In this document: one piece after another, positions 32,396 to 61,260 of the stretch | Layout of the letters: each line of letters opens with the position of its first letter | Position numbering within the stretch: position 1 is the stretch's first letter | Assembly: GCA_002363545.1 (NCBI GenBank) | Contig: DEWF01000001.1 | Coordinates: 106,880 to 170,879, forward strand | Direction of reading: 5' to 3' | Origin: Christensenella sp. UBA3217 | Lineage (GTDB): Bacteria > Bacillota > Clostridia > Christensenellales > CAG-1252 | DNA: 64,000 bases | The notes under the pieces: model-generated | Seen by the model: the letters and a program-made list of their open reading frames with translations, nothing else | Databases searched by the model: none | Told to the model about the DNA's origin: nothing | Made by a program: the position numbers and the translations under genes

Positions 32396-32424
32396 TTGCG
32401 CACGCGCGTGAATTTTGCTATACT
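32396..32424 (+). promoter_or_regulatory. Putative sigma-A promoter of the decarboxylase operon
   Basis: TTGCGC (32396-32401), a 17-nt spacer, then TATACT (32419-32424). Confidence 0.4.
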
Positions 32425-32477
32425 GTTATACGGAAAAATTTTGTTGCGGCATAGCCGCCAATCGGATAGGAGGGTAT

Positions 32478-33857: not shown

Positions 33858-33859
33858 TT

Positions 33860-34258: not shown

Positions 34259-34271
34259 GAGGAGAAAGATT

Positions 34272-34655: not shown

Positions 34656-34662
34656 GGATAGT

Positions 34663-35910: not shown

Positions 35911-35916
35911 TAAAAG

Positions 35917-35950
35917 CAAAGCGGCGAAACTTCTTCGCCGCTTTGTTATA
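35917..35950 (+). terminator. Rho-independent terminator of the decarboxylase operon
   Basis: A 12-bp perfect stem (caaagcggcgaa / ttcgccgctttg) with loop acttc, followed by T-rich sequence. Confidence 0.65.
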
Positions 35951-36026: not shown

Positions 36027-36055
36027 TTGAACTTAGAATAATTATATGTTAAAAT
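36027..36055 (+). promoter_or_regulatory. Putative sigma-A promoter of the giant lipoprotein gene / glycan locus
   Basis: TTGAAC (36027-36032), a 17-nt spacer, then TAAAAT (36050-36055), in a very AT-rich 220-bp gap. The SD GGAGGG precedes ATG 36091. Confidence 0.5.
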
Positions 36056-36090
36056 TATAATGTATAAGTATTTGCACACGGAGGGCAACA

Positions 36091-39000
36091 ATGAAAAAAG
36101 CAAAACTGTTTCTTTCGGTTTTTTTGATCGTTGTTTTGGCAGTTGTCTGTCTATATGCCTGTTCGGAAGGTGGTACGGAGAGTGTTGCTCCCGTTTCTAT
36201 CGTTGCGGAAGAAAACGGGATCTCTTTTTCGCATGAAACCTACGATACTTTTTATTACGTTTTGGATGATGGGGAAGAGAAAGAGGTTGATGGCTCAGCG
36301 TCTTTGCGCTATTCCACCACTGCAGGCGCTCATACCATTAAAGTTTACGTAAAGGATAGTTCCGGTAAGGAAGCAGGAGTTGCGGAATATGCATATACCA
36401 CGGTTAAAATTGCATTGACGTTAAACCCTCTTTCGGGTAAGACGGTTTCTTGGACGGCTATTGCCAAAGAGGTTTCCGTGAAAGAATCGGGGGATTATGT
36501 GATCACTACCGAGAATTCTTATACGGCATCTTTGGATGGTGTGAAAGTGTTCGTTCGTGCCGTGGGTGGGTTTGACGCGGAAAATGCGGTTTATTACGCC
36601 GGCTCATCCATTACGCAGTCTGTCACCATTGCACCCAGCGTTTTGCCAACACTTGCCGCACCCACTTTGAAGTTTAACGATAACACCATTACCTGGACCA
36701 CAAATACAAAAGCAAGCGGCTATGCGGTATCTTATGATGCCGGTGAATATACCCTTCTTACCAAAAACAGTGATAAAAAATATGATCCGCTATTGCTCTC
36801 CGATGTAATTGGTCCACACAGTATTGCGTTAAAAGCAGTAGGGGATCACACCAATTATGATGACAGTCCTGCTGCCGTTTATCAATATCAAACGGTGGCT
36901 ACTACTCTTAGCGCCATCAAGACAGCTTCGGATCAAGCAACGGTCACATCGGTGGCACCCGTCTATTTTACTGCCGATAATGACGCCTACATTCCTCTTG
37001 AAGGTTCGTTGTATACGGCACCCGAAAGTTGCACAATCTCCTTTGTCGCTTACGGTTTGGATAAGCAAAATGATATCAATTACGTGGTTGGTGACGTGGC
37101 AACCATCACTTTTGTGACCACGGCAATACGCGATAACGTAATTGAGGATGGGGCGGACGGCTTTGCCGAGCGCTGGTCCGCGGATAAATTCGGTTCTACC
37201 GCATGGGAAAGCACTTCGGCGCACCTTTCTTTGGGAAAGAGATATGATCGTTCCGATGCACTTGTTATGAATGCCTGGAATAACAACGTGGCATATCGTT
37301 TTTCCACATTGCTTAACTTAACGCAGGGATATGATTCCCTCTCTTTCTATTACAAAGGGGATGGGATCTCCCGTTTGACTTTAACGCTTGCGGATGACGA
37401 CACGGGTTATGCCATTCGCCGAGATCTTGGCGTGTTGCCGGCCTATTGGGTGAAGGTAACTTTGCGATTGGATGATCCCGATTGGACGCTCAATAACGGC
37501 TTTTCTCTTGCCGATCTTTGGGAAATGAGAACATCGGAAGAGGCGCAATCTTACGGGGTTCCCGATATTATAGCAACTGCTTTTGAGCTTTACGAGATTG
37601 TTCCTTTTCTTGATCGTTTGAGCTTTACCGTCACCGGAAACGATGAAATCGGTGACGACTGTAAGTTGTGCTTTGACGAATTGACTTTCTCTTACGATCC
37701 AGAGGCAAAAGAAGACGTGATGCAACCCATCACGATGGGTTCCTCTTACGTTGCATACGAAACTTTGCCCAACGAATCGAGAAACGAGTGGCTTCTCTTT
37801 TTGGAAGAAGAAAATACCTTCCGTTTATATTCTACCGCTTTGGAGAAAAACTGCATTTTGAACGGCTCATATTCTACGGACCTTGCTCGTGCGACTCTTC
37901 GTTTACAAGATGAGAACGGTTTGCAGATGGATCTTTCCTTTGAAGATAACGGCATGTCTGTGCGCGTGTTTGCGGTGACCGGTGAATATGCAGATCATTT
38001 GGATGCGCTTCTTTTCAAACAAACGGCGGATCTTACATTGGATTTTGAAGACGGGGAAGTGGGAGAAAGCTATCTTAACGAAGATTGGATCTCCTACTAT
38101 TACGTGGAAAACCAAGGGTGGAAAGTAAACGAATCTTCGCAGATCAATTGCCGTGAGAAAAACGCTTCTACCGTTATTAACTTTGCCACGGGTCAATATC
38201 TTACCAATCAATTCGTTTACCATGAGGAAGGTATGCCGTTTGGTCTTGCCAATTCGTTCTCGGTAGCGATCGGTAACTATTACACCGGGGCGCAACCCAT
38301 AGAGGTCAAATGGGTGGCCGTGGATGTTAACGGTGATCAGCACTATCTTTTAGGCAGTGAGAGCGCCTTTTACGTTTATCCCGTCACCGATAATCTTGAA
38401 ACCATCCAATATGAAACAAAAGATCCCATTTCTCCCGTGACATTCCTGTTTATTACGAGGTACCACGGTGATAACGAAGTGAGTTATTTGTATTTGGACG
38501 ATCTTACCGTGAGATATAAGGCAGATTCTTCCGTCTTCTCCGGTTATTCCGAACCGGAGATCGAAAAAGGGCGTTTTGCGCTCACCTTTACCCATGAAGA
38601 CGCCAACGCCATCATGGAGTATTCCGTAAATGACGGAGAATGGACGGAAGGCACCATTTATTCTATTCCTACCGTGGCAGGTAATTACGTGGTGCGTGTT
38701 CGCGGAAGAGTGGGGGCGGATGAAACGCTTACCAAAACAGCGTCTTATTCATTCAGGGTAGAGGACGTGTTCCTTTCTCCCATATCGGTAGCCATTGAAG
38801 GCGGGGTGCATACCGCCACCTGGACCACCAACGGTAAGATCTCCCGTAAGGTGGACTTAAAAACAGAGTCTGGCATTGTTCCCGGCACCTTTGAGGAAAC
38901 CGAAACCAATTCCTATTCTACCGAGCAAAACTCGGTTTTGACCGTGCGAGTGGAAGGCTACTACGACAGCGAGAACAACGTTTATTACGTGGGATCGCAG

Positions 39001-42000
39001 GAGCTTACCAAAAAGATCCTTGCCGGTGTGACAAAATCGGAAGATCCCGTGATCGTTCCCACGCAAGAGGGTATCACTTGGTCTGAGATAGAGGACGCTT
39101 CTTACGCCGTTTCCGTAAACGGAAGCGATGAAGTGATCCGCGCGGATAGGCTCTTCCCTTATGCTAAGGTGGAAGGGGAATACGTTTTGCGCGTCAGAAG
39201 CGTGATCTTGGATGATAATGGGGAAGTGATCGCGTACAGCAATTATGCGGAATTCCGCTATACGGTAAAACCCGTCACCCTCACCCTTAGCAAGGATAAG
39301 GCAACCGTGAGCTGGACGGCGCAAGCATATAGAGTATCTTTAACGGTTAATACCGTCACCTATGACGATTGGGCGGAAAACTACTATACCGCAACCGAAC
39401 TTGGCGGTCATTCGTTGTCTGTTGCGGCAAAAGCAGGCTATAAGGATGGCGTGTACTATTACTGCGAAAAGGACGTGGTTAGGGAAACCAGTGTAAAAGT
39501 TCGCAATCTTCCCGCACCTACCCTCTTTTTGAACAGCTCGGAAAACGGTCTGTATTGGGCGTTTGCTAATCAGGATAATTCGGATGATACCGTTGCCACT
39601 GTGGAAGATATGAACAGCGCGTTCCCCTTCCTTACGTATCAGATCTCGGTGAACGGGGGAGAGTGGTATGCTGCAAGCGAGTATCTTTTCCCGTCTGTGG
39701 CAGGGGATTACAGCGTGCGCGTAAAGACCATCGGAAACGAGGGGAATTATAAAGACAGCAAACCTTCCGATCCCTTTACCTTTACGGTTCGCGAGCTATC
39801 TCTTTCCGATATCAGCGTGGAAGAAAGCGAGATAGAAAGTGTAGCAACTTATACCTACACCGCATTGTATCTTTACAGAAAGGTGGGAGAGAAAGGAGCG
39901 GAAAGCCGTATTGAAGATACCACCTTTGTCACCAACGTGACCGCCACGCTTTTCTTGCGTGCAACGGGCGGTTTTGATAAGGTGAATAAGATCTTTTACT
40001 TTGGAGAAGAGATCAACAAGAATAAGACGGTCATCGTGCCCAAGTACCTGGCGGCTCCCGTGCTTAATAAAACCAAGGACGGCATTACGTGGTTGGGCGT
40101 GGAAAACGCCAATGCTTATTACGTAACGATAAACGACGTTCCCGTGGGCGTGCAACCGCAAACGGCCCTCTCTTTGACCTATGCAACCACTCCCGGGGAG
40201 TACCAAGTTTCGGTAAAAGCGGTCAATACGGGTGAATTTGAACACTTGCAGTACCCGGATAGTGCCTACGCGGAGTATACCTATCGCGTGATCCAAATCG
40301 GGCTCTCGGATTATAGGATCACCGGTGCTGTGGTCAGTTGGGAATTTGACGGCATTTTGTCCTTGTATGAAGCCGGTGACGAGGTGGTTGGGCATTCCGA
40401 GTTATACGAATACGCTCCCTATGATAGATCCTATTACATTAACGAAAGCGGTGATAATATCACCTTGTGTTTGCAGATCGAACCGGGGTTTGATGCGGAA
40501 AATGATATTCTATATATCGGAAGTACCATTTGGGTTGAACTCCCCGTTACGGAATCACAACTTTTTGCGCCCGAATTGCAGGTGGTAGAGGGCGGTTTGG
40601 AGTGGCAAGAGGATAAGAAAGCCACGGCTTTTGCTTATAAAGTGTTGGAAGGGGTTTATACGGATCAGCAGATCGAAACCGAAGCGGCGGATACCGTTGC
40701 GGAAAATTGGTCCTCTTATCTTCCCTCGGTAAGGCGTTATGAATTCAGTCATACCGCAGGCAACTACGTGTTTATCATCAAAACGATGGGCGACGGTTCC
40801 GCCATTAAGGACAGTGAACCTACCTATTGGCGCTACTCGGTGCAATACGTTTCTCTCTCGGAGATCACGGTAAACAACAAGGTTGCTTCTTGGACCAAGG
40901 TGGGTATTACGGAAAGAAGGATAGAAAGAATCGTAAACGGGTATCCCGAAACCATTCCTTTTGCCTTGATAACCGATACCTCCTATCAGGCGTCCGAAAC
41001 GCTTACGCTCACCATTCGATGTAAGAGTGGTTACGATGCGGAAAACAACGTTTACTATTACGGGGAAACCGTTGAAGAAAGCAAAGAAGTGGTGGTGCCC
41101 ACTCAGTTGGGAACGCCTGATCTTACCTTTGAAGCGGTAGGTATTCGCATCGGCAGGGTGCAAAATGCCGATTCGGTGCTTATTTCGGTAAATAACGGCG
41201 AGTATTTCGTGTTTACGGAATCTATTTATTCGCTTTCCGATACGGTGGGGGAATATACCGTAAAGGTACGCGCTTACAACAGCAAGGATACGAAAAACCA
41301 ATATCCTGCCAGCGAGGATGCGATCGTCACCTACCAAGTGAGGGAAGTTTGTATTCCCGAGATCACGGAAGAGGATGGTCGTGCGCTGTTTGAAAGCGCG
41401 CAGGGCGTCTTTTATGCAAAAGAAGAAGGCTGGACGGATTACGCAGAAACGGCTTTGACCGAAAAGGCTTATTCTCCCGAAAGCGGTAGTACCACCGTTT
41501 ATATTAAGGCTACCGCGGGCGTGGATACCGCCAATCGATTAAAATTCGTTGGCACGGATAAGGAAAACAGCAAGTACATCGTGGTACCTATCAAACTCAA
41601 TAGCCCGAGATTGGTGGAAGGTATTTCGGCATTGACCATACAAAAGGTGGATAATGCGGATAGTTATTTGGTATCCGTAGACGGTGGCGAGTACGTTTTG
41701 CAAACCCAGTTGTACGTTTCTTACCTTACTTCCGTTACGACAGGGGATGAAAAGCACACCATCTCCGTGAAAGCACATTCTACAGGCGATTCAAAGCAGT
41801 ATCCGGATAGTGATCCCGTGATGGTGGAATATAAAACGGTGGTTTGTTATTTAAGCAATTTGAAGGTGGAAAGCGGCACCACAAAGTTTACTTGGGAAGT
41901 GAACGCGCAATCGGTGAGGATCAGCGTGAATGGTGGAACGGCATATGCTTATACCGCCACTTCCTATACCGCCACAGCAGTAGGAAAGACCACCTTAAAA

Positions 42001-44088
42001 GTCACGGCATATACCGGATATTCTTCCGCTAACCATACCTATTATTATGCGGCGGATGCTTCTTTGTCTTTGAGCGCAAACGTGACCATCTCCAAGCTAT
42101 CCAAGCCTTCGCTCTCGGTTAGCAATAACCGCATCACCTGGTCTTCGGTGAGCCAAGCAACGGGCTATTCGGTAAAAACCAATTCGGCAAGTCCTGCTTC
42201 GCAAAGCAATACGTACACCAATCTTGCTTCGCAAGAGGGAAGTTATACCGTGGCTGTTAAAGCACTCGGAAACGGCTCCACACTTCTTGACAGCGATGAG
42301 GCAACCTATACCTATCAAGTAAAGATCGTTACCCTCTCCAATATTTCTGTGGTTGGTCCCAAGGCGTCATGGAGTGCGGTTGCGTATAAAACTTCTTACA
42401 GCGTGGACGGTTCGAGCAGTTATACTGTCACGACGGATACTTCCTATTCCTTTACCACAGAAGGTACTCATACCTTAAACGTGAAAGCAGAGGGCGGTTG
42501 GAATTCATCCGAGAAGATCTATTATTATACTTCTTCTCCCATTGTAAAATCCGCTACCGTAAAGGTTGCTACTCTTGCAAAACCCACTCTTACCGCGAAC
42601 AGTAAGGGGATCTCTTGGAATTCCGTAACCAACGCAACGGGGTATTCCGTTAAGATCGATAACGGCAGTTATACCACGCAGTCTGATAGAAGTGTATCCT
42701 TCTCCACTACCGTTGGCACTCATACCGTTTACGTTAAGGCGCTGGGCGCTACCGGATCGGCTTATGCGGATAGTGCAGCCGCAACCTTTACTTACGCCAC
42801 AAAACAAACGGCATTCTCCTTTATCAGTTCTTCCGGCACCATGGCAACTTGGAGCTATGCCGGCGTGTCTGCGCAGTATTCCACAGATGGTGGTAATAAT
42901 TACGTGAATACTCCCTACACGGGGTATACTGCCACAGCTAACGGAACGGTGAAATTCCGCGCAGTTGGCGGGTGGGATGCCGCCGCAAACGTCTATTATA
43001 ACGGTACCACTTCGGCGCAAAGCAAAACCTTCACTTTGCCCGGGCTTTGCATCAATAACAACTTTGAAAAGGGCATTGGTACTTGGTCAAAAGAGTATTA
43101 CAATACCAATTGGGCAACCGCTTCTACGGCTTCGGTTTCTGCCGCAACGGATGCTTACGGCGCTGGTCAGGCAGTAAAATTTCATTCCTTCCTTAACGGA
43201 ATGTCTTATCGCTTCGGCATTAGCTTTGGCGATCTTCCTTCCAGTTATAAATCGCTGAGTTTTGATATTAAACTGAACGCGTATTTGAATACGGGAACCA
43301 CCTTCCGTTTCCAGGATTCGGCAAGCGGTACTTACGTGGATTATAAAATAGATCACTTGTCCCTCACTGCAGGTGTTTGGTATCACGTGACGGTGGGATT
43401 TGAGGATGAAAACCTGATCATCAATTCCGGTAATAAAGAGTATACTGCACCCAAAGCAAAAAGCCTTTTGGGCGAAAAGTCTTTCTATGAAAAGATCAAA
43501 GCGCTTGATAAGATGTATGTGACCGTTAGAGGTAATCATGGGGAAGGGGCGGACGCATATACCTTCTTGGATAACTTGCAATTCTCCACCGCAACTTGTT
43601 CTTCTGCCAATGCGGTAAAGATCACCACGAAAGAAGTGGATTTCAATAATGGTTCAGCAAGCGGGTGGAAGCAGTATACGTATCAATCGAATACCTATGT
43701 GAGTGCAGGAAACGTTTCTATCGCAACCGCATCGGATAAAGACAGAGTGCTCAACCTTTGGACGGGCGGCAATACCTATAAGTTTACGTATAACGAGGGC
43801 GGGTCGAGTCTCGGCACGGTAAACCACCTCTCCATTGACCTTGGCGGTGATAGCGGTGATACGAGTTTGAAATATCGTATTGAGATCGTCACCAAGAGCG
43901 GCAGCACCATCTACGCCGCGGGTGGGGAAGACTTTATGGCATCGCTTTCTTCACCGGGCGGTATCTCTTCTCTCCAAACGGTGAACTTTAACTTTACGGC
44001 AACCGAGATCAAGAGTATAATTATTTACGCTACTTCTGCAAGCGGACACCTGTTTGTGGATAACTTGATCTTAACCAAACTATCATGA
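36091..44088 (+). CDS. Giant (2665-aa) surface lipoprotein: tandem Ig/Fn3-like two-part repeats plus four CBM-like modules
   Basis: One uninterrupted ORF. The signal/lipobox is MKKAKLFLSVFLIVVLAVVCLYAC/SEGG. CBM-like modules lie at about residues 346-535, 646-810, 2317-2500 and 2505-2665 (openings DFEDGEVGES, INNNFEKGIGTW and VDFNNGSASGW; closings CFDELTFSY, LYLDDLTVRY, TFLDNLQFS and LFVDNLILT). There is no LPXTG motif, C-terminal TM segment or SLH motif. Confidence 0.9.
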   Translation: MKKAKLFLSVFLIVVLAVVCLYACSEGGTESVAPVSIVAEENGISFSHETYDTFYYVLDDGEEKEVDGSASLRYSTTAGAHTIKVYVKDSSGKEAGVAEYAYTTVKIALTLNPLSGKTVSWTAIAKEVSVKESGDYVITTENSYTASLDGVKVFVRAVGGFDAENAVYYAGSSITQSVTIAPSVLPTLAAPTLKFNDNTITWTTNTKASGYAVSYDAGEYTLLTKNSDKKYDPLLLSDVIGPHSIALKAVGDHTNYDDSPAAVYQYQTVATTLSAIKTASDQATVTSVAPVYFTADNDAYIPLEGSLYTAPESCTISFVAYGLDKQNDINYVVGDVATITFVTTAIRDNVIEDGADGFAERWSADKFGSTAWESTSAHLSLGKRYDRSDALVMNAWNNNVAYRFSTLLNLTQGYDSLSFYYKGDGISRLTLTLADDDTGYAIRRDLGVLPAYWVKVTLRLDDPDWTLNNGFSLADLWEMRTSEEAQSYGVPDIIATAFELYEIVPFLDRLSFTVTGNDEIGDDCKLCFDELTFSYDPEAKEDVMQPITMGSSYVAYETLPNESRNEWLLFLEEENTFRLYSTALEKNCILNGSYSTDLARATLRLQDENGLQMDLSFEDNGMSVRVFAVTGEYADHLDALLFKQTADLTLDFEDGEVGESYLNEDWISYYYVENQGWKVNESSQINCREKNASTVINFATGQYLTNQFVYHEEGMPFGLANSFSVAIGNYYTGAQPIEVKWVAVDVNGDQHYLLGSESAFYVYPVTDNLETIQYETKDPISPVTFLFITRYHGDNEVSYLYLDDLTVRYKADSSVFSGYSEPEIEKGRFALTFTHEDANAIMEYSVNDGEWTEGTIYSIPTVAGNYVVRVRGRVGADETLTKTASYSFRVEDVFLSPISVAIEGGVHTATWTTNGKISRKVDLKTESGIVPGTFEETETNSYSTEQNSVLTVRVEGYYDSENNVYYVGSQELTKKILAGVTKSEDPVIVPTQEGITWSEIEDASYAVSVNGSDEVIRADRLFPYAKVEGEYVLRVRSVILDDNGEVIAYSNYAEFRYTVKPVTLTLSKDKATVSWTAQAYRVSLTVNTVTYDDWAENYYTATELGGHSLSVAAKAGYKDGVYYYCEKDVVRETSVKVRNLPAPTLFLNSSENGLYWAFANQDNSDDTVATVEDMNSAFPFLTYQISVNGGEWYAASEYLFPSVAGDYSVRVKTIGNEGNYKDSKPSDPFTFTVRELSLSDISVEESEIESVATYTYTALYLYRKVGEKGAESRIEDTTFVTNVTATLFLRATGGFDKVNKIFYFGEEINKNKTVIVPKYLAAPVLNKTKDGITWLGVENANAYYVTINDVPVGVQPQTALSLTYATTPGEYQVSVKAVNTGEFEHLQYPDSAYAEYTYRVIQIGLSDYRITGAVVSWEFDGILSLYEAGDEVVGHSELYEYAPYDRSYYINESGDNITLCLQIEPGFDAENDILYIGSTIWVELPVTESQLFAPELQVVEGGLEWQEDKKATAFAYKVLEGVYTDQQIETEAADTVAENWSSYLPSVRRYEFSHTAGNYVFIIKTMGDGSAIKDSEPTYWRYSVQYVSLSEITVNNKVASWTKVGITERRIERIVNGYPETIPFALITDTSYQASETLTLTIRCKSGYDAENNVYYYGETVEESKEVVVPTQLGTPDLTFEAVGIRIGRVQNADSVLISVNNGEYFVFTESIYSLSDTVGEYTVKVRAYNSKDTKNQYPASEDAIVTYQVREVCIPEITEEDGRALFESAQGVFYAKEEGWTDYAETALTEKAYSPESGSTTVYIKATAGVDTANRLKFVGTDKENSKYIVVPIKLNSPRLVEGISALTIQKVDNADSYLVSVDGGEYVLQTQLYVSYLTSVTTGDEKHTISVKAHSTGDSKQYPDSDPVMVEYKTVVCYLSNLKVESGTTKFTWEVNAQSVRISVNGGTAYAYTATSYTATAVGKTTLKVTAYTGYSSANHTYYYAADASLSLSANVTISKLSKPSLSVSNNRITWSSVSQATGYSVKTNSASPASQSNTYTNLASQEGSYTVAVKALGNGSTLLDSDEATYTYQVKIVTLSNISVVGPKASWSAVAYKTSYSVDGSSSYTVTTDTSYSFTTEGTHTLNVKAEGGWNSSEKIYYYTSSPIVKSATVKVATLAKPTLTANSKGISWNSVTNATGYSVKIDNGSYTTQSDRSVSFSTTVGTHTVYVKALGATGSAYADSAAATFTYATKQTAFSFISSSGTMATWSYAGVSAQYSTDGGNNYVNTPYTGYTATANGTVKFRAVGGWDAAANVYYNGTTSAQSKTFTLPGLCINNNFEKGIGTWSKEYYNTNWATASTASVSAATDAYGAGQAVKFHSFLNGMSYRFGISFGDLPSSYKSLSFDIKLNAYLNTGTTFRFQDSASGTYVDYKIDHLSLTAGVWYHVTVGFEDENLIINSGNKEYTAPKAKSLLGEKSFYEKIKALDKMYVTVRGNHGEGADAYTFLDNLQFSTATCSSANAVKITTKEVDFNNGSASGWKQYTYQSNTYVSAGNVSIATASDKDRVLNLWTGGNTYKFTYNEGGSSLGTVNHLSIDLGGDSGDTSLKYRIEIVTKSGSTIYAAGGEDFMASLSSPGGISSLQTVNFNFTATEIKSIIIYATSASGHLFVDNLILTKLS
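38533..43038 (+). repeat. Coding tandem array: nine copies of a ~165-aa two-part (A+B) module inside the giant gene
   Basis: B-part examples: PAPTLFLNSSENGLYWAF, AAPVLNKTKDGITWLGVENANAYYVTIND, SKPSLSVSNNRITWSSVSQATGYSVKTN and AKPTLTANSKGISWNSVTNATGYSVKIDNG. A-part examples: RVEGYYDSENNVYYVGS, RATGGFDKVNKIFYFGE, IEPGFDAENDILYIGS, CKSGYDAENNVYYYGE, KAEGGWNSSEKIYYYTS and RAVGGWDAAANVYYNGT. Confidence 0.8.
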
Positions 44089-44138
44089 CTTGATCCGCTA
44101 TAGCGGCTTGAATAAAACACGAAAAAGGAACTAGCATT

Positions 44139-45116: not shown

Positions 45117-45172
45117 GCCTGTTGTTCTTTGTAAAAGAACATTCAGGGACGTCATACGGATGGATAGTTTGG

Positions 45173-47004: not shown

Positions 47005-47017
47005 AAGGGAGGATATT

Positions 47018-48640: not shown

Positions 48641-48643
48641 AAT

Positions 48644-50155: not shown

Positions 50156-50158
50156 CTT

Positions 50159-52846: not shown

Positions 52847-52869
52847 AAATAACAAAAAGGTGGACTGAA

Positions 52870-53883: not shown

Positions 53884-55223
53884 AAAAAATAAGCATAGCA
53901 CTCATCTCGATCATTTGCATGATTTGTACGATAGCACTCTCCGCTTGTTCTTCCGAGAAAGCGAAAAAGTATTCTTATTCTCCGTTGAATGCAAAAGTGC
54001 GTTATCTTACGAACATTGCAGGTGAGACCATCTCCCTTTCTTCGGGACGTGAGGTGATTTCGGAAAATACCGTCTTTATGACTGAGGAAGCCATGGAAGG
54101 GGATATTCTTACCGAGCCTACCGAGCATCCCACAAGAGTGGGATATGACTTTTGCGGATGGGCGCTGGATAAAGAGGGGGAACAACTGTTCGATTTTAGC
54201 ACCCCCATTACCGGCAGTTTGAATTTGTACGCAAAGTGGGAGCGCACGCAAGAGAGTGAAACGGTGCTGGATTATACCGAGCCCAGGTTGCAGTTTACCG
54301 AAGTGATAGACGAATCCTCCGAATTCTCTTTAACGGGCGTGTGCAATCAGCCCATCAAGGATGACGCAGTCGGGCTCACAACGGCAGGCATCAATCGTCT
54401 GACGGCAAAGGCGCAAAACGTTAAAGAGTATTTGAATTATACCCGCGCTTCTGCCACTGCAATTCAATCCGCAACGTATGAAAACGGTGTTGTCAGCGTG
54501 ACCTATACGACGGGAGGATCCAACACAACCATCCAAGTGACGGTAAACGATATCACGAGCACTTTGGCAATAACGGATGATCCCGCTACGCCCAAAGAAA
54601 GCATAGACGAAAGTACCTTTGAAAGAAAGGCGCTCAGATATGAAGCAACGGATATTGCTTCCTATAACGTGATCTTGGGCGGCTCATCCTCTATGGAGAA
54701 TTGGAGCAATTCCACCGAGTATATGAATCCCGTCACCACCAAAAACGTTGGTATCGGCGGTTCTGCGTCCTTCCATTGGCTCAACTCCCTTGCGGATCGC
54801 TTGATCATTCCTTACAATCCCAGGACCGTGGTGCTTTACGTGGGCATTAACGATATCATCAACTTCAAGAAAAACGGAAAGACCACAGGTGAGAATTTGA
54901 TCAAACTGTTTGAGTATTTACACGAGCGTTTGCCCGAAGCACACGTTCACTTCATTTTGATCAATCACGTGCCGGGCTATTATAAAACTTATAAGAGCTA
55001 TATTGATACCGCAAACAATATGGTGCTCGAATATGCCCAAACGCATGAATACTTAAAGACGATAGATGCGGGTACCGTTCTTGAAAAGAAAAACGGGGAG
55101 TATTCCGAAGCATACTTCTTGACCGATAAATTGCATATGTCGCAGGCAGGATACGTGCTTTGGGGCGCCGAAGTGAAAAAAGCGGTGATCGCGGATGATA
55201 AGGAGCGTTATGACAATGATTGA
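53880..55223 (+). CDS. Lipoprotein SGNH/GDSL esterase with an N-terminal Listeria-Bacteroides (Flg_new-type) repeat
   Basis: The track ORF starts at 53850. I prefer ATG 53880 (MKKISIALISIICMICTIALSAC/SSEK), which overlaps the GH130 stop as ATGA. The Flg_new-like segment is GYDFCGWALDKEGEQLFDFSTPITGSLNLYAKW. The SGNH blocks are ILGGSSSMENW, GIGGS and DKLHMSQAGY. Confidence 0.75.
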   Translation: MKKISIALISIICMICTIALSACSSEKAKKYSYSPLNAKVRYLTNIAGETISLSSGREVISENTVFMTEEAMEGDILTEPTEHPTRVGYDFCGWALDKEGEQLFDFSTPITGSLNLYAKWERTQESETVLDYTEPRLQFTEVIDESSEFSLTGVCNQPIKDDAVGLTTAGINRLTAKAQNVKEYLNYTRASATAIQSATYENGVVSVTYTTGGSNTTIQVTVNDITSTLAITDDPATPKESIDESTFERKALRYEATDIASYNVILGGSSSMENWSNSTEYMNPVTTKNVGIGGSASFHWLNSLADRLIIPYNPRTVVLYVGINDIINFKKNGKTTGENLIKLFEYLHERLPEAHVHFILINHVPGYYKTYKSYIDTANNMVLEYAQTHEYLKTIDAGTVLEKKNGEYSEAYFLTDKLHMSQAGYVLWGAEVKKAVIADDKERYDND

Positions 55224-55818
55224 ACACAAGATTGATATGTATCGTTATGAACCCGAATTGCAAGCGATCATTGCAAAACAGGGGAAAGAATGCAACGTGC
55301 TCTTTTACGGAAGCAGCACTTTCGGCATTTGGAAAAGCATAGAGGAAGAGTTTAAGGATTACAAGGCGATCAATGCCGGCTTTGGAGGCTCTACTTCGGA
55401 CGAAGCACTTTTCCACTATGAGAGAGTGGCAAAGCCCTTTGCTCCCAAGGTGGTTTTGTGGTATTACGGGGATAACGAGCCCGTTTGTTCCTATACGGTA
55501 GAAGAAACCAAGGAGCTCTTTCTTGCCACTTGGGAAAAGTTCGTAAAGGATTTTCCCGGCGTGAAGATCGTTACCATTGCTACAAAAACCAGTTTTGCGC
55601 GCGATGAATACAAGGATTTTGTGCGTGAGCTCAACGCTTGGCAAAAAGAGCAGGCGGCAAAGTTGCCTTATCTTACCTATATCGAAACGGCAGATATCTG
55701 TAAGGATGAGAAAGGGGAGTATATCTTCTCTCATTACTTGGATGATAAACTGCATTTCGGCCCCGAAGGCTACAAGATCCTCGGAGCAAGAGTGAAGAGA
55801 GTGCTTGACGAGATATGA
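55210..55818 (+). CDS. Cytoplasmic SGNH/GDSL esterase
   Basis: About 202 aa with no signal peptide. The SD AAGGAG (55200-55205) precedes ATG 55210; the track start is 55195. The SGNH blocks are LFYGSSTFGIW, GFGGSTS, YYGDNE and DDKLHFGPEGY. Confidence 0.7.
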   Translation: MTMIEHKIDMYRYEPELQAIIAKQGKECNVLFYGSSTFGIWKSIEEEFKDYKAINAGFGGSTSDEALFHYERVAKPFAPKVVLWYYGDNEPVCSYTVEETKELFLATWEKFVKDFPGVKIVTIATKTSFARDEYKDFVRELNAWQKEQAAKLPYLTYIETADICKDEKGEYIFSHYLDDKLHFGPEGYKILGARVKRVLDEI

Positions 55819-56297
55819 TGCTCGTAAAGGATGAAGACAGAGTAGCGGCAGAGAGAAAGAAAAAGCAGTTGCTTATTCTTTATATCGTGATCGCCTGCGT
55901 GTACGTGGCAGGCGCCTTACTGTTGCTTTTTCTGTCATCCGACAGCTATATCCCCTTCATGGTGGGTGATATTGTGCTCTCAATTGCCTTTGCATGGTAT
56001 TCGATCTTCTTCTTTACGGTACAGTTTGATTATCAGGTCAAATGGTGCCGTTTGATGAATAAAGTGACGGGCGCGCTTGTGGAAAGCGTATACGGCGTGT
56101 TCGTGAAGGAAGAGGCGCGTAAAACCATCGAAGGTGTGGAAATGCGCATATTGATCTTTCAGGTGAGAGATAGTGAGCGTGAGCTCCATCTTTTACGTGA
56201 GGATGCTACCTTTGAAAAAGGAAAAAAATATCTTCTCGTTACGCAAGCAAGCGTGATCGTGGAGATAGGAGAGCAAGATGAAAAAAAGGTTTCGTGA
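55815..56297 (+). CDS. Hypothetical membrane protein (2 TM segments plus a C-terminal soluble domain)
   Basis: 160 aa with an ATGATG overlap with the esterase stop. The TM segments are LLILYIVIACVYVAGALLLLFL and VGDIVLSIAFAWYSIFFFTV. No family was recognised. Confidence 0.5.
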   Translation: MMLVKDEDRVAAERKKKQLLILYIVIACVYVAGALLLLFLSSDSYIPFMVGDIVLSIAFAWYSIFFFTVQFDYQVKWCRLMNKVTGALVESVYGVFVKEEARKTIEGVEMRILIFQVRDSERELHLLREDATFEKGKKYLLVTQASVIVEIGEQDEKKVS

Positions 56298-56826
56298 TTC
56301 TTTGCCCTCCGAATGGCTGAAATACTTGGTGGTCACCATCCTATGTGTGGTGCTGTGGATGTGGTTTTTCGGAATGTATCATTCTCCGAAAGACACCGAG
56401 AAAATAGAAGTTTTTTTTGCAGGACACGTGAAGAGCGGCAACGCTTTTGAAAGCCTTGCGGAAAAGCAGTTTGATTACTTAAAATCCGTGAGCATTGCCT
56501 CGGCTGATCCTGCGAGAAAGAATGCTTTTCAGCAAAAGTATGAAACGGTGGGATTCACGATGTCCGACGTGGTGATCGTGCCGGAAAGCGTGGCGAATGC
56601 AACGCAATGCGAAACGGCGTTTGCCGAATTGACGGATATGGGAGAAGCCTATATCCAAAACGAGATCTCTTACGGTGTTTATATTCCGGAAGAGAAAAAA
56701 ACTTGGCTTGCGCAATACTTTGATTTTACAGAGGAGCGATACGTTGTATTTGCGGTGGCTTCCTCGGTAAATTCGGGTGGCAAAACAAACCATTCTTTTG
56801 ATTTTATTGAATGGATTGTGAGGTAA
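56278..56826 (+). CDS. Hypothetical membrane-anchored protein (N-terminal TM segment plus an extracytoplasmic domain of about 140 aa)
   Basis: 182 aa, overlapping the upstream ORF by 20 nt. The TM segment is LKYLVVTILCVVLWMWFFGMY. No family was recognised. Confidence 0.5.
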   Translation: MKKRFRDSLPSEWLKYLVVTILCVVLWMWFFGMYHSPKDTEKIEVFFAGHVKSGNAFESLAEKQFDYLKSVSIASADPARKNAFQQKYETVGFTMSDVVIVPESVANATQCETAFAELTDMGEAYIQNEISYGVYIPEEKKTWLAQYFDFTEERYVVFAVASSVNSGGKTNHSFDFIEWIVR

Positions 56827-56827
56827 T

Positions 56828-57682
56828 ATGTTTAGGTACAAAGGGTTGAAATTGAAGGAGGGGGACGCTGCCCTTCCCAAAACGAGAAAGGAATTATTTA
56901 AGACCATCGTCCGAGATGATTTCTACTTGCTTGCGGAGATCAGCGTGATACTTTTCCTCTTTTCCATTCCTTTGGCAGCGGGGTTCATCTTGGAAGTGTT
57001 AATGATCACACATTTGCCGGACCTACAAGGGTTGTTCTGGGTGTGTTTCTACTCCGCCTTGATAGAGATCCCGCTCTTCGGAGTGCGCTATATCGGTCGT
57101 CATGCGGCATTCGGTGTGATGAAGAAAAGGGTGCAAAACGAAGGGGGCTATATCAAAGAACTGTTTTTCCAAAACCTGAAAAAAGGGTTTGTTAAAGGGT
57201 TCTTGGCAGGGTGCCTAGTGGGGTTCATTGCTTTCCTATGGCAGGTCGGATCCATCTTTGTTTTAACGAATGACAGCACTTGGATCAAAGGGCTTGGCTT
57301 GGGTGCAACCACTTTGATCTTTACGATGTTTTACGTGGCGGTGGAGTACTTTCTCTCGGTGGATAATTTTTACGAGTTAAAGTTCTCGGGTGCATTGAAA
57401 AACGGGTTATCCTTTACGATCATGCACTTTCCCATGTCGCTCGTGTACTTCGTTGCCTGCGTGGGCGTACCTTTTGCGCTCACCGTGATTTCTCCTTGGG
57501 CCATCTTCGCGTTTGCCGCGGTAATGGCTTTTTGGGGAGATGGTTTTACGGTGCTGGTAGCAACGCTGTATAGTCACACGTTGTTTGATAGGTATATAAA
57601 CTCGGTGTATTATCCCGATTATATAAATAAGGGTCTTGCTCCGCGAGAGGGAGAGGCCGAAAAGGAGAATGACAATGGCTGA
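56828..57682 (+). CDS. Polytopic membrane protein, possibly YesL/DUF624-like
   Basis: 284 aa with about 6 TM segments. It starts 2 nt after the upstream stop and overlaps the ATPase gene by 8 nt. The DUF624 assignment rests on topology and context only. Confidence 0.45.
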   Translation: MFRYKGLKLKEGDAALPKTRKELFKTIVRDDFYLLAEISVILFLFSIPLAAGFILEVLMITHLPDLQGLFWVCFYSALIEIPLFGVRYIGRHAAFGVMKKRVQNEGGYIKELFFQNLKKGFVKGFLAGCLVGFIAFLWQVGSIFVLTNDSTWIKGLGLGATTLIFTMFYVAVEYFLSVDNFYELKFSGALKNGLSFTIMHFPMSLVYFVACVGVPFALTVISPWAIFAFAAVMAFWGDGFTVLVATLYSHTLFDRYINSVYYPDYINKGLAPREGEAEKENDNG

Positions 57683-60600
57683 TTTACTACTTGAGAATAT
57701 TTACAAGGTGTACGAGGGCGGCGTTCGCGCGGTTTCCGACTTTAATCTCAAGATCGAAGACAAGGAGTTCGTGGTTTTCGTCGGACCATCCGGTTGCGGT
57801 AAGAGTACCACTCTTCGTATGATCGCCGGTTTGGAAGAGATCACCTCGGGCAGTTTGTATATCGGTGGGTCCAAGATGAACAACGTGGAACCCAAGGATA
57901 GAAATATCGCAATGGTTTTCCAGAACTATGCATTGTATCCGCACATGACCGTTTATAAGAACATGGGATTCGGCTTGAAGCTTCGTAAAGTGAATTCCAA
58001 AGAGATCGATAAAAGGGTGAAGGCCGCGGCGTCTGTTTTAGGTATTACCGATCTTCTTTCCAGAAAGCCCAAGGCGCTTTCCGGTGGTCAAAGACAGCGC
58101 GTGGCGCTCGGCCGTGCGATCGTTCGTGAACCCAACGTGTTCCTTTTGGACGAGCCTCTTTCCAACTTGGACGCTAAACTGCGCGTGCAGATGAGAGCAG
58201 AGATCACTAAGTTGCATAAAAAACTAGCCACCACCTTTATTTATGTGACACACGATCAAACCGAAGCAATGACGATGGGTGATAGGATCGTGGTTATGAA
58301 GGATGGGTTCATTCAGCAAGTGGACTCTCCCGCAACCCTTTACGAACAACCGAGAAACGTGTTTGTGGCAACCTTCCTCGGCTCTCCTCAAATGAATATC
58401 TTTGACGCCAATCTTTTCAAAAACGGCGAGCTTGGTGTAACCTTTGGCGAGGATCATACCGTTACCTTTTCTCAAAAGAAAGCAAACCAACTTGCCGATG
58501 AAAGATATATCGGTCAAAAGGTGCTTTTCGGTATTCGTCCCGAAAATATCAAACTTGGCGGCAAAGAAGGCATTCGCGGCAGAGTGGACGTGGTGGAACA
58601 CCTTGGCAGTGAGACCATCATTTATGCTAACGTAAGCGGGGTGGAATCACCGATTATCGTAAAAGTGCCCACTAATTACGATATCGTGGAAGGGTTGGAG
58701 ATCAGCATGGTGTTTGATATGGAAAAATCCCATCTTTTCGATGCGGAAACCAAACAGTCCATCATGGGCGTACCTGACGTGAACCGCGTGCCGTGCTCTA
58801 TTGAGAATAACCAGCTTGTCATTAACAAAAGGCGTTATCTTTTGCCTGAATTATTAAAGAAGAAGTTCTTTGACTTCTCACGTGAAAGCCTTGCCGAGAT
58901 CCGTATTCCCGCCACGAAAGTGTCTTTGGAAGAAGTGCCGGAAGGGATCCATTTTAAGGCAAAGGTGGACTTTACGATCCCCGGAAACGACTCTGTCACT
59001 TTCTACGTTAAATCCGAAGTGAAAGAAGGATTTTTTGTGTTCCGTATCAATAACTCTTACTTTAATCAAACAGAAGATGGGGTTGATACCAGAAAAGTGC
59101 CGCAAGAAGGGGAAGAGATCGACTTGTACGTGCCTTTCTCCGAAATCTCCTTTACCGACAAGGACGGCCTGCGCGTGAATTCTCGCGAGATCATTTCTTC
59201 CAATACCGCTCCTTGCCGTGTCACTACGAAAAACGGCATTACTCGCATCCGTTTGAAGGGGAACACACTTACTTATAATGATCTTCAGGTGGAAGATGGC
59301 GATTATACGATCAAGCTGAAATCGGATAAAATCGGCTTTGTGTATGACAAAAAGTTTGCCAAAGCAAACAAAATTCCTCTTTCGGGCAAAGTGCCTAATT
59401 CCGTGGTCGCAAAGGCTTATGACGAAGATCGTTTGGGCGACAAAAATGCGGTTTTCTGTGCTGTGAAAGGGTTTGATAATTACGTGACAGCCGTGCTTCC
59501 CGCCACCTTCTCGGTGTACAAAATGCCAAAGTTCAAGTTTGTGATCGGAAGGGATAGTTTCACTTTGGAAAAGCGAGCAAATCAAGTGAATTCCGGAAGG
59601 AACGTAAACGAATTGTATTCTCTTTGGAGAGAAAAAGTGACCGATGAAACGTTGGCTGATGAATTAGACAGCATTGCAAACAATGAGGAAAAGATCTCCG
59701 ATGCGTTCTATCGTGATTTGGAATTCGGAACCGGTGGTTTGCGCGGTGTGCTTGGTGCCGGAACGAATAGAATGAATATTCACACGGTGGGAAAAGCAAC
59801 GCAAGGCCTTGCCGATTATGTGATAGCCAATTATCCGGAAGGGGAAAGAAGCGTTGCGATCAGCTATGATTCACGCATCAATTCCGACGTATTTGCCAAG
59901 AGGGCGGCAGCCATCTTTGCCGCAAACGGTATTAAAGTGTATCTTTATAAAACTTTGATGCCTACGCCTTGTTTGTCTTATGCGGTGCGTTCATTGAAAA
60001 CAAGCGCCGGTGTTATGGTGACGGCTTCTCACAATCCGGCAAAGTATAATGGTTACAAAGTGTACGGGAATGACGGTTGCCAAATTACCGAACAAGCGGC
60101 AAATGAGATCCTTTCGCTTATCGAGAGTACGGATATTTTTAACGGCGTAAAGATTAAGGACTTTGATAAGGCTTTGGCACAAGGGGAAATCGAATATATT
60201 TCCGACAACGTTTTGACTTCCTTTATCGAACGCGTAAAGAAGGAATCGGTGCTTGGGGATGAAAAAGCCGACCGTAGTGCCAACATCGTTTATACTCCTT
60301 TGAACGGAACGGGACTTGTGCCTGTCACTCGCATTTTGAAGGAAACGGGCTTTTCCAACGTGACGGTTGTAAAAGAACAAGAACTCCCGGACGGAAACTT
60401 CCCTACCTGTCCCTATCCCAATCCCGAGATCAAGGAAGCGCTTGCCCTTGGATTGGAATACGCTAAAAATACTTCCGCTGATATTTTGATCGCAACCGAT
60501 CCCGATTGCGATCGTGTGGGTATTGCGGTTAAAAACAAGGATGGTGATTTCTCCCTTTTGACCGGAAATGAAGTTGGATTCTTGCTTCTTGATTTTATTG

Positions 60601-61214
60601 CAAGCATGCGTATCAAGCACGGAACGATGCCCGCTGATCCCGTGTTTGTCAAAACCATCGTCACGAGTGATCTTGCCGAGAAGATCGCGGATCATTACGG
60701 TATTCGTACCATCAATGTGCTTACCGGCTTTAAGTATATCGGCGAGCAGATCGGTCTTTTGGAAAAGAAGGGGAAGGAAGATTGCTACCTGTTGGGCTTT
60801 GAAGAAAGCTACGGTTATCTGTCCGGCTCTTACGTGCGTGATAAGGACGCGGTAGACGGTGTGTTCATGATTGCCGAGATGTTTGCCTATTACAGAGCGC
60901 AAGGTATCTCCTTGCTTGATAAGCTGGATGAGATCTATGCAACTTACGGGCATTTTGTTTCCACCTTGGAGAGCTTTGCCTTTGAAGGTCAAGAAGGCTT
61001 TGTTAAGATGAGCAAGATCATGGATGAGTATCGTGAGACTATGGTGGTTGAAGGGAAAAAGGTCGTGGAGAAGAAAGACTATTCTATCGGCATTGACGGA
61101 CTTCCCAAATCAAACGTGATCAAATTTACCTTTGAAGACGGAAGTACGATGGTGGTGCGTCCTTCGGGTACCGAGCCTAAGCTGAAAATCTATCGTTGTA
61201 CCCTTCAAAAATAA
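57675..61214 (+). CDS. Fusion protein: MsmX/MalK-type ABC ATPase + ~270 unassigned residues + phosphohexomutase (PGM/PMM)
   Basis: The frame holds 1179 codons from ATG 57675 (SD AAAGGAG 57661-57667; the track start is 57636). ATPase motifs: GPSGCGKST, LSGGQRQRVALGRA, FLLDEPLS and VTHDQ, with the regulatory domain ending EKSHLFDAETKQSI. Mutase motifs: FGTGGLRG, TASHNPAKYNGYK, DPDCDRVG, GFEESYGY and RPSGTEP. Confidence 0.85.
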   Translation: MADLLLENIYKVYEGGVRAVSDFNLKIEDKEFVVFVGPSGCGKSTTLRMIAGLEEITSGSLYIGGSKMNNVEPKDRNIAMVFQNYALYPHMTVYKNMGFGLKLRKVNSKEIDKRVKAAASVLGITDLLSRKPKALSGGQRQRVALGRAIVREPNVFLLDEPLSNLDAKLRVQMRAEITKLHKKLATTFIYVTHDQTEAMTMGDRIVVMKDGFIQQVDSPATLYEQPRNVFVATFLGSPQMNIFDANLFKNGELGVTFGEDHTVTFSQKKANQLADERYIGQKVLFGIRPENIKLGGKEGIRGRVDVVEHLGSETIIYANVSGVESPIIVKVPTNYDIVEGLEISMVFDMEKSHLFDAETKQSIMGVPDVNRVPCSIENNQLVINKRRYLLPELLKKKFFDFSRESLAEIRIPATKVSLEEVPEGIHFKAKVDFTIPGNDSVTFYVKSEVKEGFFVFRINNSYFNQTEDGVDTRKVPQEGEEIDLYVPFSEISFTDKDGLRVNSREIISSNTAPCRVTTKNGITRIRLKGNTLTYNDLQVEDGDYTIKLKSDKIGFVYDKKFAKANKIPLSGKVPNSVVAKAYDEDRLGDKNAVFCAVKGFDNYVTAVLPATFSVYKMPKFKFVIGRDSFTLEKRANQVNSGRNVNELYSLWREKVTDETLADELDSIANNEEKISDAFYRDLEFGTGGLRGVLGAGTNRMNIHTVGKATQGLADYVIANYPEGERSVAISYDSRINSDVFAKRAAAIFAANGIKVYLYKTLMPTPCLSYAVRSLKTSAGVMVTASHNPAKYNGYKVYGNDGCQITEQAANEILSLIESTDIFNGVKIKDFDKALAQGEIEYISDNVLTSFIERVKKESVLGDEKADRSANIVYTPLNGTGLVPVTRILKETGFSNVTVVKEQELPDGNFPTCPYPNPEIKEALALGLEYAKNTSADILIATDPDCDRVGIAVKNKDGDFSLLTGNEVGFLLLDFIASMRIKHGTMPADPVFVKTIVTSDLAEKIADHYGIRTINVLTGFKYIGEQIGLLEKKGKEDCYLLGFEESYGYLSGSYVRDKDAVDGVFMIAEMFAYYRAQGISLLDKLDEIYATYGHFVSTLESFAFEGQEGFVKMSKIMDEYRETMVVEGKKVVEKKDYSIGIDGLPKSNVIKFTFEDGSTMVVRPSGTEPKLKIYRCTLQK

Positions 61215-61225
61215 AAAGCATTCAT

Positions 61226-61260
61226 AAAAAGGGCTTGCTTCGGCGAGCCTTTTTTGTTTT
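61226..61260 (+). terminator. Rho-independent terminator closing the glycan locus
   Basis: The stem ggcttgc (61232-61238) / gcgagcc (61243-61249) has loop ttcg, an A-run before it and a T6 run after it. Confidence 0.7.

Follow-up and report, generated by a model that had tools for sequence, protein, structure and literature searches.

Among the described mannan systems close to the locus treated here is MULL of Roseburia intestinalis (La Rosa et al. 2019; PMC6385246), which combines an ATP-binding cassette (ABC) importer dependent on a lipoprotein solute-binding protein with two intracellular enzymes of glycoside hydrolase (GH) family 130, two acetyl-esterases and a phosphomutase, such that oligosaccharides are imported and then subjected to ATP-saving phosphorolysis. 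The same logic is predicted for an unbroken run of 14 plus-strand genes (G01 to G14) at positions 36091-61214 of a 64-kb stretch of contig DEWF01000001.1 from Christensenella sp. UBA3217, hereafter the window, to which coordinates refer. MULL further contains GH26, GH130_1, epimerase, GH113, GH36, GH1/GH3 and LacI genes (PMC6385246), whereas the window locus has none of these and instead encodes a GH130 enzyme bearing a Glu/Arg (E/R) residue pair, a putative clan GH-A lipoprotein of GH30-like fold, giant lipoproteins resembling carbohydrate-binding modules (CBMs), three additional membrane proteins and a mutase joined in one chain with a TOBE-extended ATPase.

Two further systems share individual parts. 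The GH130_2 enzymes RaMP2 of Ruminococcus albus and TM1225 of Thermotoga maritima match G02 strongly, with the catalytic, phosphate-binding and +1-subsite residues retained, whereas in their own organisms they are accompanied by mannanases of GH26 or GH5 and, in the case of R. albus, also by GH130_1 and an epimerase. The marine bacterium Zobellia galactanivorans encodes at ZGAL_226-233 a clan GH-A enzyme of the G06 family (ZGAL_230), an E/R GH130 sharing 50% identity with G08, and an acetyl-esterase, but in a Bacteroidota layout (AraC, SusC/SusD, SSF symporter) without GH130_2, ABC transporter or mutase.

The locus is read here, with a probability of about 0.5, as an operon-like Gram-positive polysaccharide utilization locus (PUL) of an uncultured rumen Clostridia bacterium, which would act on an acetylated β-mannan-type glycan containing β-1,4 and β-1,3 bonds. 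An earlier note on this DNA had described a Gram-positive PUL analogue for a β-mannoside, and both parts of that description hold: surface lipoproteins, an ABC importer, esterases, two cytosolic GH130 enzymes with intact residues and a phosphomutase are all encoded, and a β-mannoside substrate is supported. Its appeal to a Roseburia-like logic stands for GH130 phosphorolysis, ABC import and the mutase, but not for the GH130 pair, which is not GH130_1 plus GH130_2. The general logic (ABC import, GH130 phosphorolysis, mutase) is ordinary; there is a realistic chance of a new glycoside hydrolase specificity or family. The locus ties an uncharacterised glycoside hydrolase family to β-1,3-mannoside phosphorylases.

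Two predicted mannoside phosphorylases

Phosphorylases of family GH130 are marked by a proton-donor Asp (D104 in UhgbMP), phosphate-binding Arg and His residues (R168/H231), and the lack of both a catalytic base and a signal peptide, and the linkage cleaved is reflected in the two residues at UhgbMP Y103/R150, with Y/R found for β-1,4, E/K for β-1,2 and E/R for β-1,3 bonds (Li et al. 2020; PMC7660257). Numbered from the printed alignments, G02 (D105/R170/H230) and G08 (D89/R182/H245) both retain the catalytic and phosphate-binding set of the family, and neither displays a signal peptide or transmembrane segment. G02 aligns with TM1225 (E = 1e-136), RaMP2 (1e-114) and UhgbMP (1e-108), and its Y104/R152 pair is of the Y/R type, this pair, the catalytic Asp and the Arg/His being invariant in 52/52 orthologues. 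The enzyme is GH130_2-like, with a predicted specificity for β-1,4-mannosides and mannose (Man) or N-acetylglucosamine (GlcNAc) as the acceptor.

The second enzyme, G08, carries the E/R pair (E88/R164), invariant in 64/64 orthologues, 14 of which come from marine Bacteroidota and Verrucomicrobia, and shared with the characterised enzymes of GH130_5 (zobellia_231) and GH130_13 (U7). A search with a marine relative of G08 led to zobellia_231 (CAZ94304.1), a characterised β-1,3-mannooligosaccharide phosphorylase of subfamily GH130_5 (PMC12814180). G08 is 50% identical to this enzyme over its full length (E = 5e-117), and zobellia_231 carries E-D and D-R-D at the equivalent positions. Two other assignments of G08 were rejected. 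The top PDB and NCBIfam labels point to a β-1,2-mannoside phosphorylase (GH130_4, GH130_6), and the closest solved structures are indeed of this kind, though only with E = 1e-52; all four solved enzymes present a Lys at the position of R164, and G08 scores 214 and 184 against the NCBIfam β-1,2 equivalogs, whose cut-offs are 450 and 550. Membership in GH130_1 is opposed by the E/R pair in place of Y/R and by E-values of 1e-17 to 5AY9 (RaMP1) and 3e-16 to 3WAS (BfMGP). The natural substrates of β-1,3-mannoside phosphorylases have been guessed in the literature to derive from moulds and lipopolysaccharides.

The locus is predicted to pair a β-1,4-type (G02) with a β-1,3-type (G08) mannoside phosphorylase. 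Two exo-phosphorylases of different linkage would answer the need of an oligosaccharide with alternating or mixed β-1,3/β-1,4 mannosyl bonds, and the likeliest substrate would be an acetylated β-1,3/1,4-(gluco)mannan. Polymers with β-1,3-mannosyl bonds are documented in the cell wall of red yeast (Rhodotorula).

The same two enzymes could also serve the scavenging of β-mannoside glycoconjugates, whether the N-glycan core Man-β-1,4-GlcNAc or the Man-β-1,3-Glc/Man units of exopolysaccharide or O-antigen, as the group of G02 includes Man-β-1,4-GlcNAc phosphorylases such as UhgbMP and β-1,3-mannosyl motifs occur in moulds and lipopolysaccharides (PMC7660257). This explanation appears improbable, for the locus and its relatives encode no GH18/GH85 endoglycosidase, α-mannosidase, hexosaminidase or sialidase, and the large multi-CBM surface apparatus, like the presumed endo-action of the GH-A enzyme, points to a polymer.

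A candidate glycanase and its neighbours across phyla

The candidate endo-acting enzyme is G06, for which no family assignment came from Pfam, NCBIfam or PDB sequences, the last searched singly and as a profile. An NEP motif (E189) and WE303 are invariant in an alignment of 62 G06 sequences, and R80, N188-E189-P190, H262, Y264, E303 and W347 persist across 43 distant members. The AlphaFold model (predicted local distance difference test, pLDDT, 92) displays a (β/α)8 barrel with a side β-sandwich formed by N- and C-terminal strands, and Foldseek ranks GH30 first (E = 4e-21, template modelling score 0.64-0.73, ~13% identity). By these signature residues and the modelled fold, G06 is a predicted retaining glycoside hydrolase of clan GH-A, a clan marked by an acid/base Glu of an NEP motif on strand 4, a nucleophile Glu on strand 7 and conserved Arg, His/Tyr and Trp residues. 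It has in common with GH30 and GH5 the barrel, these two glutamates and the side sandwich, and differs from them in its low identity to solved GH30 enzymes and in matching neither the Pfam GH30 nor the GH5 model itself. Among 43 diverse members of the family, two weakly match Glyco_hydro_30C and 20 weakly match Pfam Cellulase (GH5; best E = 8.5e-10), while G06 and its 61 close relatives lack a Cellulase match save for two at E = 0.1; some relatives weakly match Pfam GH59. In all, 706 representatives at 50% identity (E <= 1e-3) were found among 1.84 billion proteins, ranging over rumen Firmicutes, marine Flavobacteriia, Verrucomicrobia and Bacteroidales. The sole β-1,3-mannanase found named in the literature, the β-1,3-(gluco)mannanase MAN5C, belongs likewise to clan GH-A, in subfamily GH5_31, which is described as confined to fungi (PMC3526467).

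The gene following G06 encodes G07, which gave no usable PDB sequence match. A natural single-chain fusion of 1342 residues (P0388) joins a G06-like GH-A domain (14-510) to a G07-like CBM array (517-1339), the latter at 35% identity over 884 residues, and this arrangement argues for G07 as a non-catalytic glycan-binding partner of G06. In a further relative (L013), G06-like and G07-like sequences share one open frame at a contig end.

Distant homologues of G06 (~24-30% identity) adjoin related genes in several phyla. Eleven marine loci of Flavobacteriia (among them Flavivirga, Tenacibaculum, Algibacter and Maribacter) present AraC, SusC, SusD, a surface protein, a GH-A paralogue, an E/R GH130, the G06-like GH-A enzyme, an SSF symporter and often a GH2 enzyme with β-mannosidase immunoglobulin (Ig) domains; a GH2 enzyme of this β-mannosidase-like kind could take the role of G02 in the marine loci. 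In Verrucomicrobia the adjoining genes encode an SSF symporter, an E/R GH130 and a GH-A enzyme, a locus in a Bacteroidales metagenome-assembled genome (MAG) contains a SASA esterase, a GH-A enzyme and a β-mannosidase-like GH2, and one in a Clostridia MAG contains two GH-A genes and a β-mannosidase-like GH2. In Zobellia galactanivorans (FP476056; L083:8381-13730 = ZGAL_230-233), with gene numbers verified against ZGAL_234-236 in PMC5613140, ZGAL_230 stands directly upstream of zobellia_231, followed by an SSF symporter and a SASA esterase. ZGAL_230 is a homologue of G06 (E = 2e-29; hhalign probability 99.9), and no polysaccharide target or expression description was found for ZGAL_226-233 in the literature. 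In each of these cases, a G06-family enzyme accompanies a β-mannoside-cleaving exo-enzyme or a GH2 of β-mannosidase-like type, often along with an acetyl-esterase.

The classical endo-mannanase and the epimerase were called absent in the earlier note, and rightly so: no GH26, GH5_7/8, GH113 or GH134 match occurs in the 14 products by Pfam and NCBIfam, and no epimerase is encoded in the window. The lack of a GH130_1 enzyme fits the missing epimerase. A candidate for the endo-enzyme is nonetheless present in G06, given its co-occurrence across phyla with E/R GH130 or β-mannosidase-like GH2 genes, and the family, as yet uncharacterised, is probably a polymer-cutting glycanase.

The main competing explanation holds that the locus is a variant of the plant acetyl-(galacto)glucomannan loci of the Roseburia intestinalis/Ruminococcus albus type, directed at β-1,4 bonds only, with G06 as an unconventional endo-β-1,4-mannanase and G08 replacing GH130_1 or a β-glucosidase on mixed Man/Glc oligosaccharides. 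The rumen habitat, the GH130_2-like G02, the phosphomutase, and the two SGNH esterases together with CE2 esterases flanking relatives, as in the Roseburia locus (PMC6385246), would all suit a plant mannan. This alternative is nevertheless rather unlikely, given that G08 bears E/R and not Y/R and aligns with zobellia_231 at 5e-117 as against 1e-16 to 1e-18 for mannosylglucose phosphorylases, that Pfam and NCBIfam detect no epimerase, GH26, GH5_7, GH113, GH36, GH1 or GH3 in the locus, and that the pair of G06 and E/R GH130 is also found in marine loci without GH26. The flanking esterase genes, of CE2 type (CE2_N plus GDSL) or with DUF4886, lie beside some Bacilli/Bacillota relatives (L022:108-1061, L044:20305-21390, L058:1531-2298), and they strengthen the link to an acetylated substrate.

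Several points weigh against the mixed-linkage reading. The substrate specificity of G06 is inferred solely from its gene neighbours, and its structural neighbours are xylanases, SrfJ, the β-1,6-glucanase BT3312 and glucosylceramidase. The domains by which Pfam recognises GH2 β-mannosidases are also present in other GH2 exo-glycosidases. The correspondence of E/R to β-1,3 bonds is backed by two characterised enzymes, of which U7 prefers a glucose acceptor, and the 50% identity of G08 to zobellia_231 falls below the 63% threshold for isofunctional enzymes (PMC7660257). Moreover, no report of a β-1,3-mannan-containing polymer in the rumen was found in the literature.

Under the mixed-linkage reading, each step of the degradative route is inferred from family membership. 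The polymer would be held at the cell surface by the lipid-anchored G01 and G07 through their Ig-like and CBM-like arrays, cut by the lipoprotein G06 as a retaining clan GH-A enzyme of GH30-like fold, and relieved of acetyl groups extracellularly by the lipoprotein esterase G09. The resulting oligosaccharides would bind G05 and enter through G03/G04, powered by the MsmX-type ATPase of G14, with deacetylation completed intracellularly by G10. G02 (β-1,4) and G08 (β-1,3) would then release non-reducing-end mannose as α-mannose-1-phosphate with no ATP spent, and the mutase domain of G14 would convert this mannose-1-phosphate (Man1P) to mannose-6-phosphate.

It is conceivable, if short of probable, that the G06 family constitutes an unrecognised bacterial (sub)family of clan GH-A endo-β-mannanases for β-1,3-containing (gluco)mannans, and that it defines with E/R GH130 a cross-phylum pathway for acetylated β-1,3/1,4-mannan. 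Were this so, the mixed-linkage mannan might come from the walls or exopolymers of red yeasts, other fungi or algae, the orphan β-1,3-mannoside phosphorylases would gain a physiological substrate, and the TOBE-extended ATPase of the rumen loci, which in the window forms one protein with the mutase, would link uptake to the metabolism of Man1P. Rumen and sea would then share a mannan turnover of a new class, from which new enzymes to make or cut β-1,3-mannosides could be drawn. As the same enzyme pair resides in a SusC/D locus of the cultured Z. galactanivorans, the hypothesis is open to genetic and biochemical testing.

Conservation, transcription and regulation

A scan of one genome per species recovered 195 stretches encoding G06 relatives, of which the best 80 were taken and the window proteins matched to their six-frame open reading frames (ORFs). 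The synteny comparison proposed in the earlier note finds the gene order of the window in 61 species-level loci among these, which argues for a conserved functional unit and not a chance neighbourhood. The conserved order runs from the first GH130 (GH130a, here G02) through two permeases, the solute-binding protein, the GH-A enzyme, the CBM protein, the second GH130 (GH130b, here G08) and an SGNH esterase, with or without a second, and continues with three membrane proteins, the extended ATPase and often a mutase; many contigs of the relatives end early. Most of the 61 loci are rumen MAGs (goat, yak, buffalo, sheep, deer) by their record titles, labelled Clostridia, "Christensenella sp. UBA...", Oscillospiraceae, Bacilli or Erysipelotrichaceae. 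An identical G06 is encoded on 14 assembled contigs, including the Logan assemblies of SRR5322940 and SRR873610, and the NCBI label of cluster members is that of "Clostridiales bacterium" MAGs. That nearly every gene of the locus is kept in dozens of uncultured Clostridia and Bacilli species of the rumen suggests a common rumen function, and no description of the locus was found in the literature on rumen, Christensenellales or mixed-linkage mannan degradation. The order G11-G12-G13 (window 55815-57682) is kept in most related Clostridia and Bacilli loci, and G11 and G12 are without a Pfam match.

As the earlier note had stated, the genes run in one direction between an AT-rich promoter region and a terminator, here a strong 3' hairpin with a U-run, and many of their junctions overlap or are only a few nucleotides (nt) long. 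Computed from ATG starts that match independent gene calls on other contigs, the gaps from G01 to G14 are 50, 56, -4, 13, 3, 3, 23, -4, -8, -4, -20, 1 and -8 nt. The GC content of the locus equals that of its flanks. The run comprises 14 genes by the ORF listing and the Pfam/NCBIfam scans, one fewer than the fifteen first counted; the count of 15 does apply to relatives, in which ATPase and mutase are encoded separately. Junction spacing, synteny and internal terminator-like matches at chance level (29 against 21.6 +/- 5.0 expected) favour a single operon-like unit over 36091-61214.

Pulling in the other direction, the best σ70-like match in the locus (TTGACA-18-TAAAAT, 11/12 positions) lies inside it, at the 3' end of G02 (45076-45105), just upstream of the permease genes, whose transcription it might drive as an internal promoter. 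Such internal promoter-like matches would suit an arrangement of several independent transcription units without a common function. This arrangement is highly improbable when at least eight junctions overlap or are 3 nt apart or less, terminator-like matches do not exceed chance, the gene order is kept across two bacterial classes, and fusions (G06-G07 and ATPase-mutase) join neighbouring genes.

The description of the locus as regulator-less requires qualification. Pfam and NCBIfam detect no domain of DNA-binding, kinase or sigma type among the 14 products, so that the in-locus regulator which the earlier note considered damaging to its proposal is not seen, and no LacI homologue is encoded anywhere in the 64-kb window. 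This is nevertheless not the design of this type of locus, as 36 of the 44 related loci in which the region is covered carry a LacI gene directly ahead of GH130a, after the gene of the surface protein, and the five closest relatives of the window are among the eight that lack it. Judged from these relatives, the missing LacI is a derived state of an ancestrally LacI-controlled locus, the gene having been lost or moved elsewhere in the genome. Without a locus LacI, expression would be constitutive, driven by the one promoter upstream, or else regulated in trans. A shared LacI operator was sought in the LacI-bearing relatives, where the sole recurrent palindrome, ACTAAAGGTTTAGT, is part of the LacI coding sequence and does not occur in the window. 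The only inverted repeat of the promoter region is an AT-rich 9-mer overlapping the -10 element, and an Rfam scan of 35000-62000 returned no riboswitch, T-box or other RNA element. A Gram-positive PUL, as Sheridan et al. reportedly defined it in 2016, combines an enzyme that degrades the carbohydrate and a transporter that imports it with a transcriptional regulator; by this definition, the locus has the co-localised glycoside hydrolase and transporter but not the in-locus regulator that 36/44 relatives possess.

Surface proteins, importer, esterases and the ATPase-mutase fusion

The coordinates of the locus features are collected in Table 1.

Table 1. Genes and transcription signals of the locus, in window coordinates.
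Feature	Position	Strand	Details
Terminator hairpin, bidirectional	35915..35947	.	perfect hairpin at 35917-35945, 12-nt arms, 100% complementary; ends the upstream Na+-decarboxylase operon; left locus edge
Promoter-like region	36027..36061	+	TTGAAC-17-TGnTAAAAT (36027-36055) overlapping a perfect TATAAT (36056-36061); AT-rich; consensus match
GGAGGG	36080-36085	+	six bases ahead of the G01 ATG
G01, 2665-aa surface lipoprotein	36091..44088	+	signal peptide and LYAC lipobox; no catalytic domain detected
G02, cytosolic GH130, GH130_2-like	44139..45116	+	Y104/D105/R152/R170/H230; rule from PMC7660257
G03, ABC permease	45173..46105	+	BPD_transp_1, 5-6 transmembrane helices; ORF open from 45122
G04, ABC permease	46102..47004	+	BPD_transp_1
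G05, 540-aa lipoprotein, divergent solute-binding protein	47018..48640	+	lipobox; weak PDB matches to solute-binding proteins
G06, 503-aa lipoprotein, predicted clan GH-A	48644..50155	+	E189 (NEP), E303; candidate extracellular endo-glycanase
G07, 895-aa lipoprotein	50159..52846	+	N-terminal Ig-like domain and four CIA30/CBM11-like β-sandwich domains
G08, cytosolic GH130	52870..53883	+	E88/D89/R164/R182/H245; PMC7660257, PMC8950772, PMC12814180
G09, 447-aa lipoprotein SGNH esterase	53880..55223	+	Listeria-Bacteroides repeat, C-terminal SGNH (GSS, GIND, DxxH); predicted extracellular deacetylase
G10, 200-aa cytosolic SGNH esterase	55216..55818	+	alternative start 55195 gives 207 aa
G11, 160-aa membrane protein	55815..56297	+	2 transmembrane helices; kept in related loci
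G12, 182-aa membrane-anchored protein	56278..56826	+	1 transmembrane helix; kept in related loci
G13, 284-aa polytopic membrane protein	56828..57682	+	DUF624 (YesL-like)
G14 part a, MsmX/MalK-type ABC ATPase, complete	57675..58766	+	Walker A, signature motif, OB_MalK, TOBE
G14 part b, 268-aa extension	58767..59570	+	additional TOBE/Mop-like β-barrels
G14 part c, PgcA-type phosphogluco/phosphomannomutase	59571..61214	+	TASHNP and DPDCDR motifs; in-frame fusion
Intrinsic terminator	61224..61257	+	UUCG-loop hairpin then U-run; -20 kcal/mol, z = -4.64

Five lipoproteins are judged convincing (G01, G05, G06, G07 and G09) where six lipobox proteins had been counted; G11 was rejected as a sixth, its lipobox-like VIAC sitting within a transmembrane helix. 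The SGNH lipoprotein, formerly given as 448 residues (aa), is 447 aa long from its ATG, and the SGNH blocks are intact in the translations of both G09 and G10. Orthologues of the divergent G05 in related loci reach Pfam SBP_bac_8.

The giant G01 has no Pfam or NCBIfam match, and its repeats, which a BLASTP self-comparison did not reveal, were found by segment-wise phmmer. Ig-like repeats occupy residues 27-330 and ~800-2320 with a period of ~165 aa, and two homologous pairs of CBM-like β-sandwiches lie at 345-540/640-790 and 2320-2500/2510-2665. The counterparts in relatives measure 600-1050 aa, which marks the size of G01 as a clade-specific repeat expansion.

G14, 1179 aa in total, begins with an ATPase that aligns with 7X0Q (E = 4e-137) and with MsmX of B. 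subtilis (1e-127) and contains Walker A/B, LSGGQ and OB/TOBE elements. Its C-terminal part retains Pfam PGM_PMM domains I-IV with TASHNP and DPDCDR intact and, by these motifs, is a predicted PgcA-type α-D-phosphohexomutase with Man1P or glucose-1-phosphate as the substrate. The modelled extension between them (pLDDT 92) comprises additional TOBE/Mop barrels, similar to the regulatory domain of MalK or the DiMop of ModE, and a new catalytic or DNA-binding domain was rejected on account of these predicted barrels. The ATPase extension of ~270 aa is predicted from the model to be a doubled regulatory domain. An extended MsmX-type ATPase of ~620-700 aa is encoded in all related loci.

The fusion to the mutase, noted earlier from the window, is present but specific to a narrow lineage. 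In the nearest relatives the mutase is a separate gene (L004:12904-15399, L009:18939-21508), the ATPase ending in '...SVYKMPVFKLV..K*' and the mutase restarting at 'MRDVK...', whereas window 57675-61214 reads through as '...EKRANQVNSGRNVNELYSLW...', the stop codon of the ATPase being gone and the spacer having become a linker. The sole other fused protein cluster (P0122) is 71% identical. An assembly artefact was rejected, as the identical protein is present on six contigs and the 71%-identical homologue is also fused. By this comparison, the fusion is the product of stop-codon loss, limited to a narrow lineage. The loss of LacI, the expansion of G01 to 2665 aa and the ATPase-mutase fusion would together make the locus a compact example of locus evolution.

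Directly upstream of the locus (window 32415-35865) lies a four-gene operon of the Na+-translocating oxaloacetate/methylmalonyl-CoA decarboxylase type, comprising carboxyltransferase, gamma subunit, biotin carrier and beta subunit, while SufC/SufB-like genes are found beyond the 3' terminator. The remaining genes of the window are housekeeping genes. Some 20 kb upstream, a sugar-phosphate nucleotidyltransferase of 235 aa (NTP_transferase; window 16068-16775, minus strand) could use hexose-1-phosphates and is unlinked to the locus. A minus-strand ORF of 1413 aa (window 1588-5829) is overlapped by several plus-strand ORFs.

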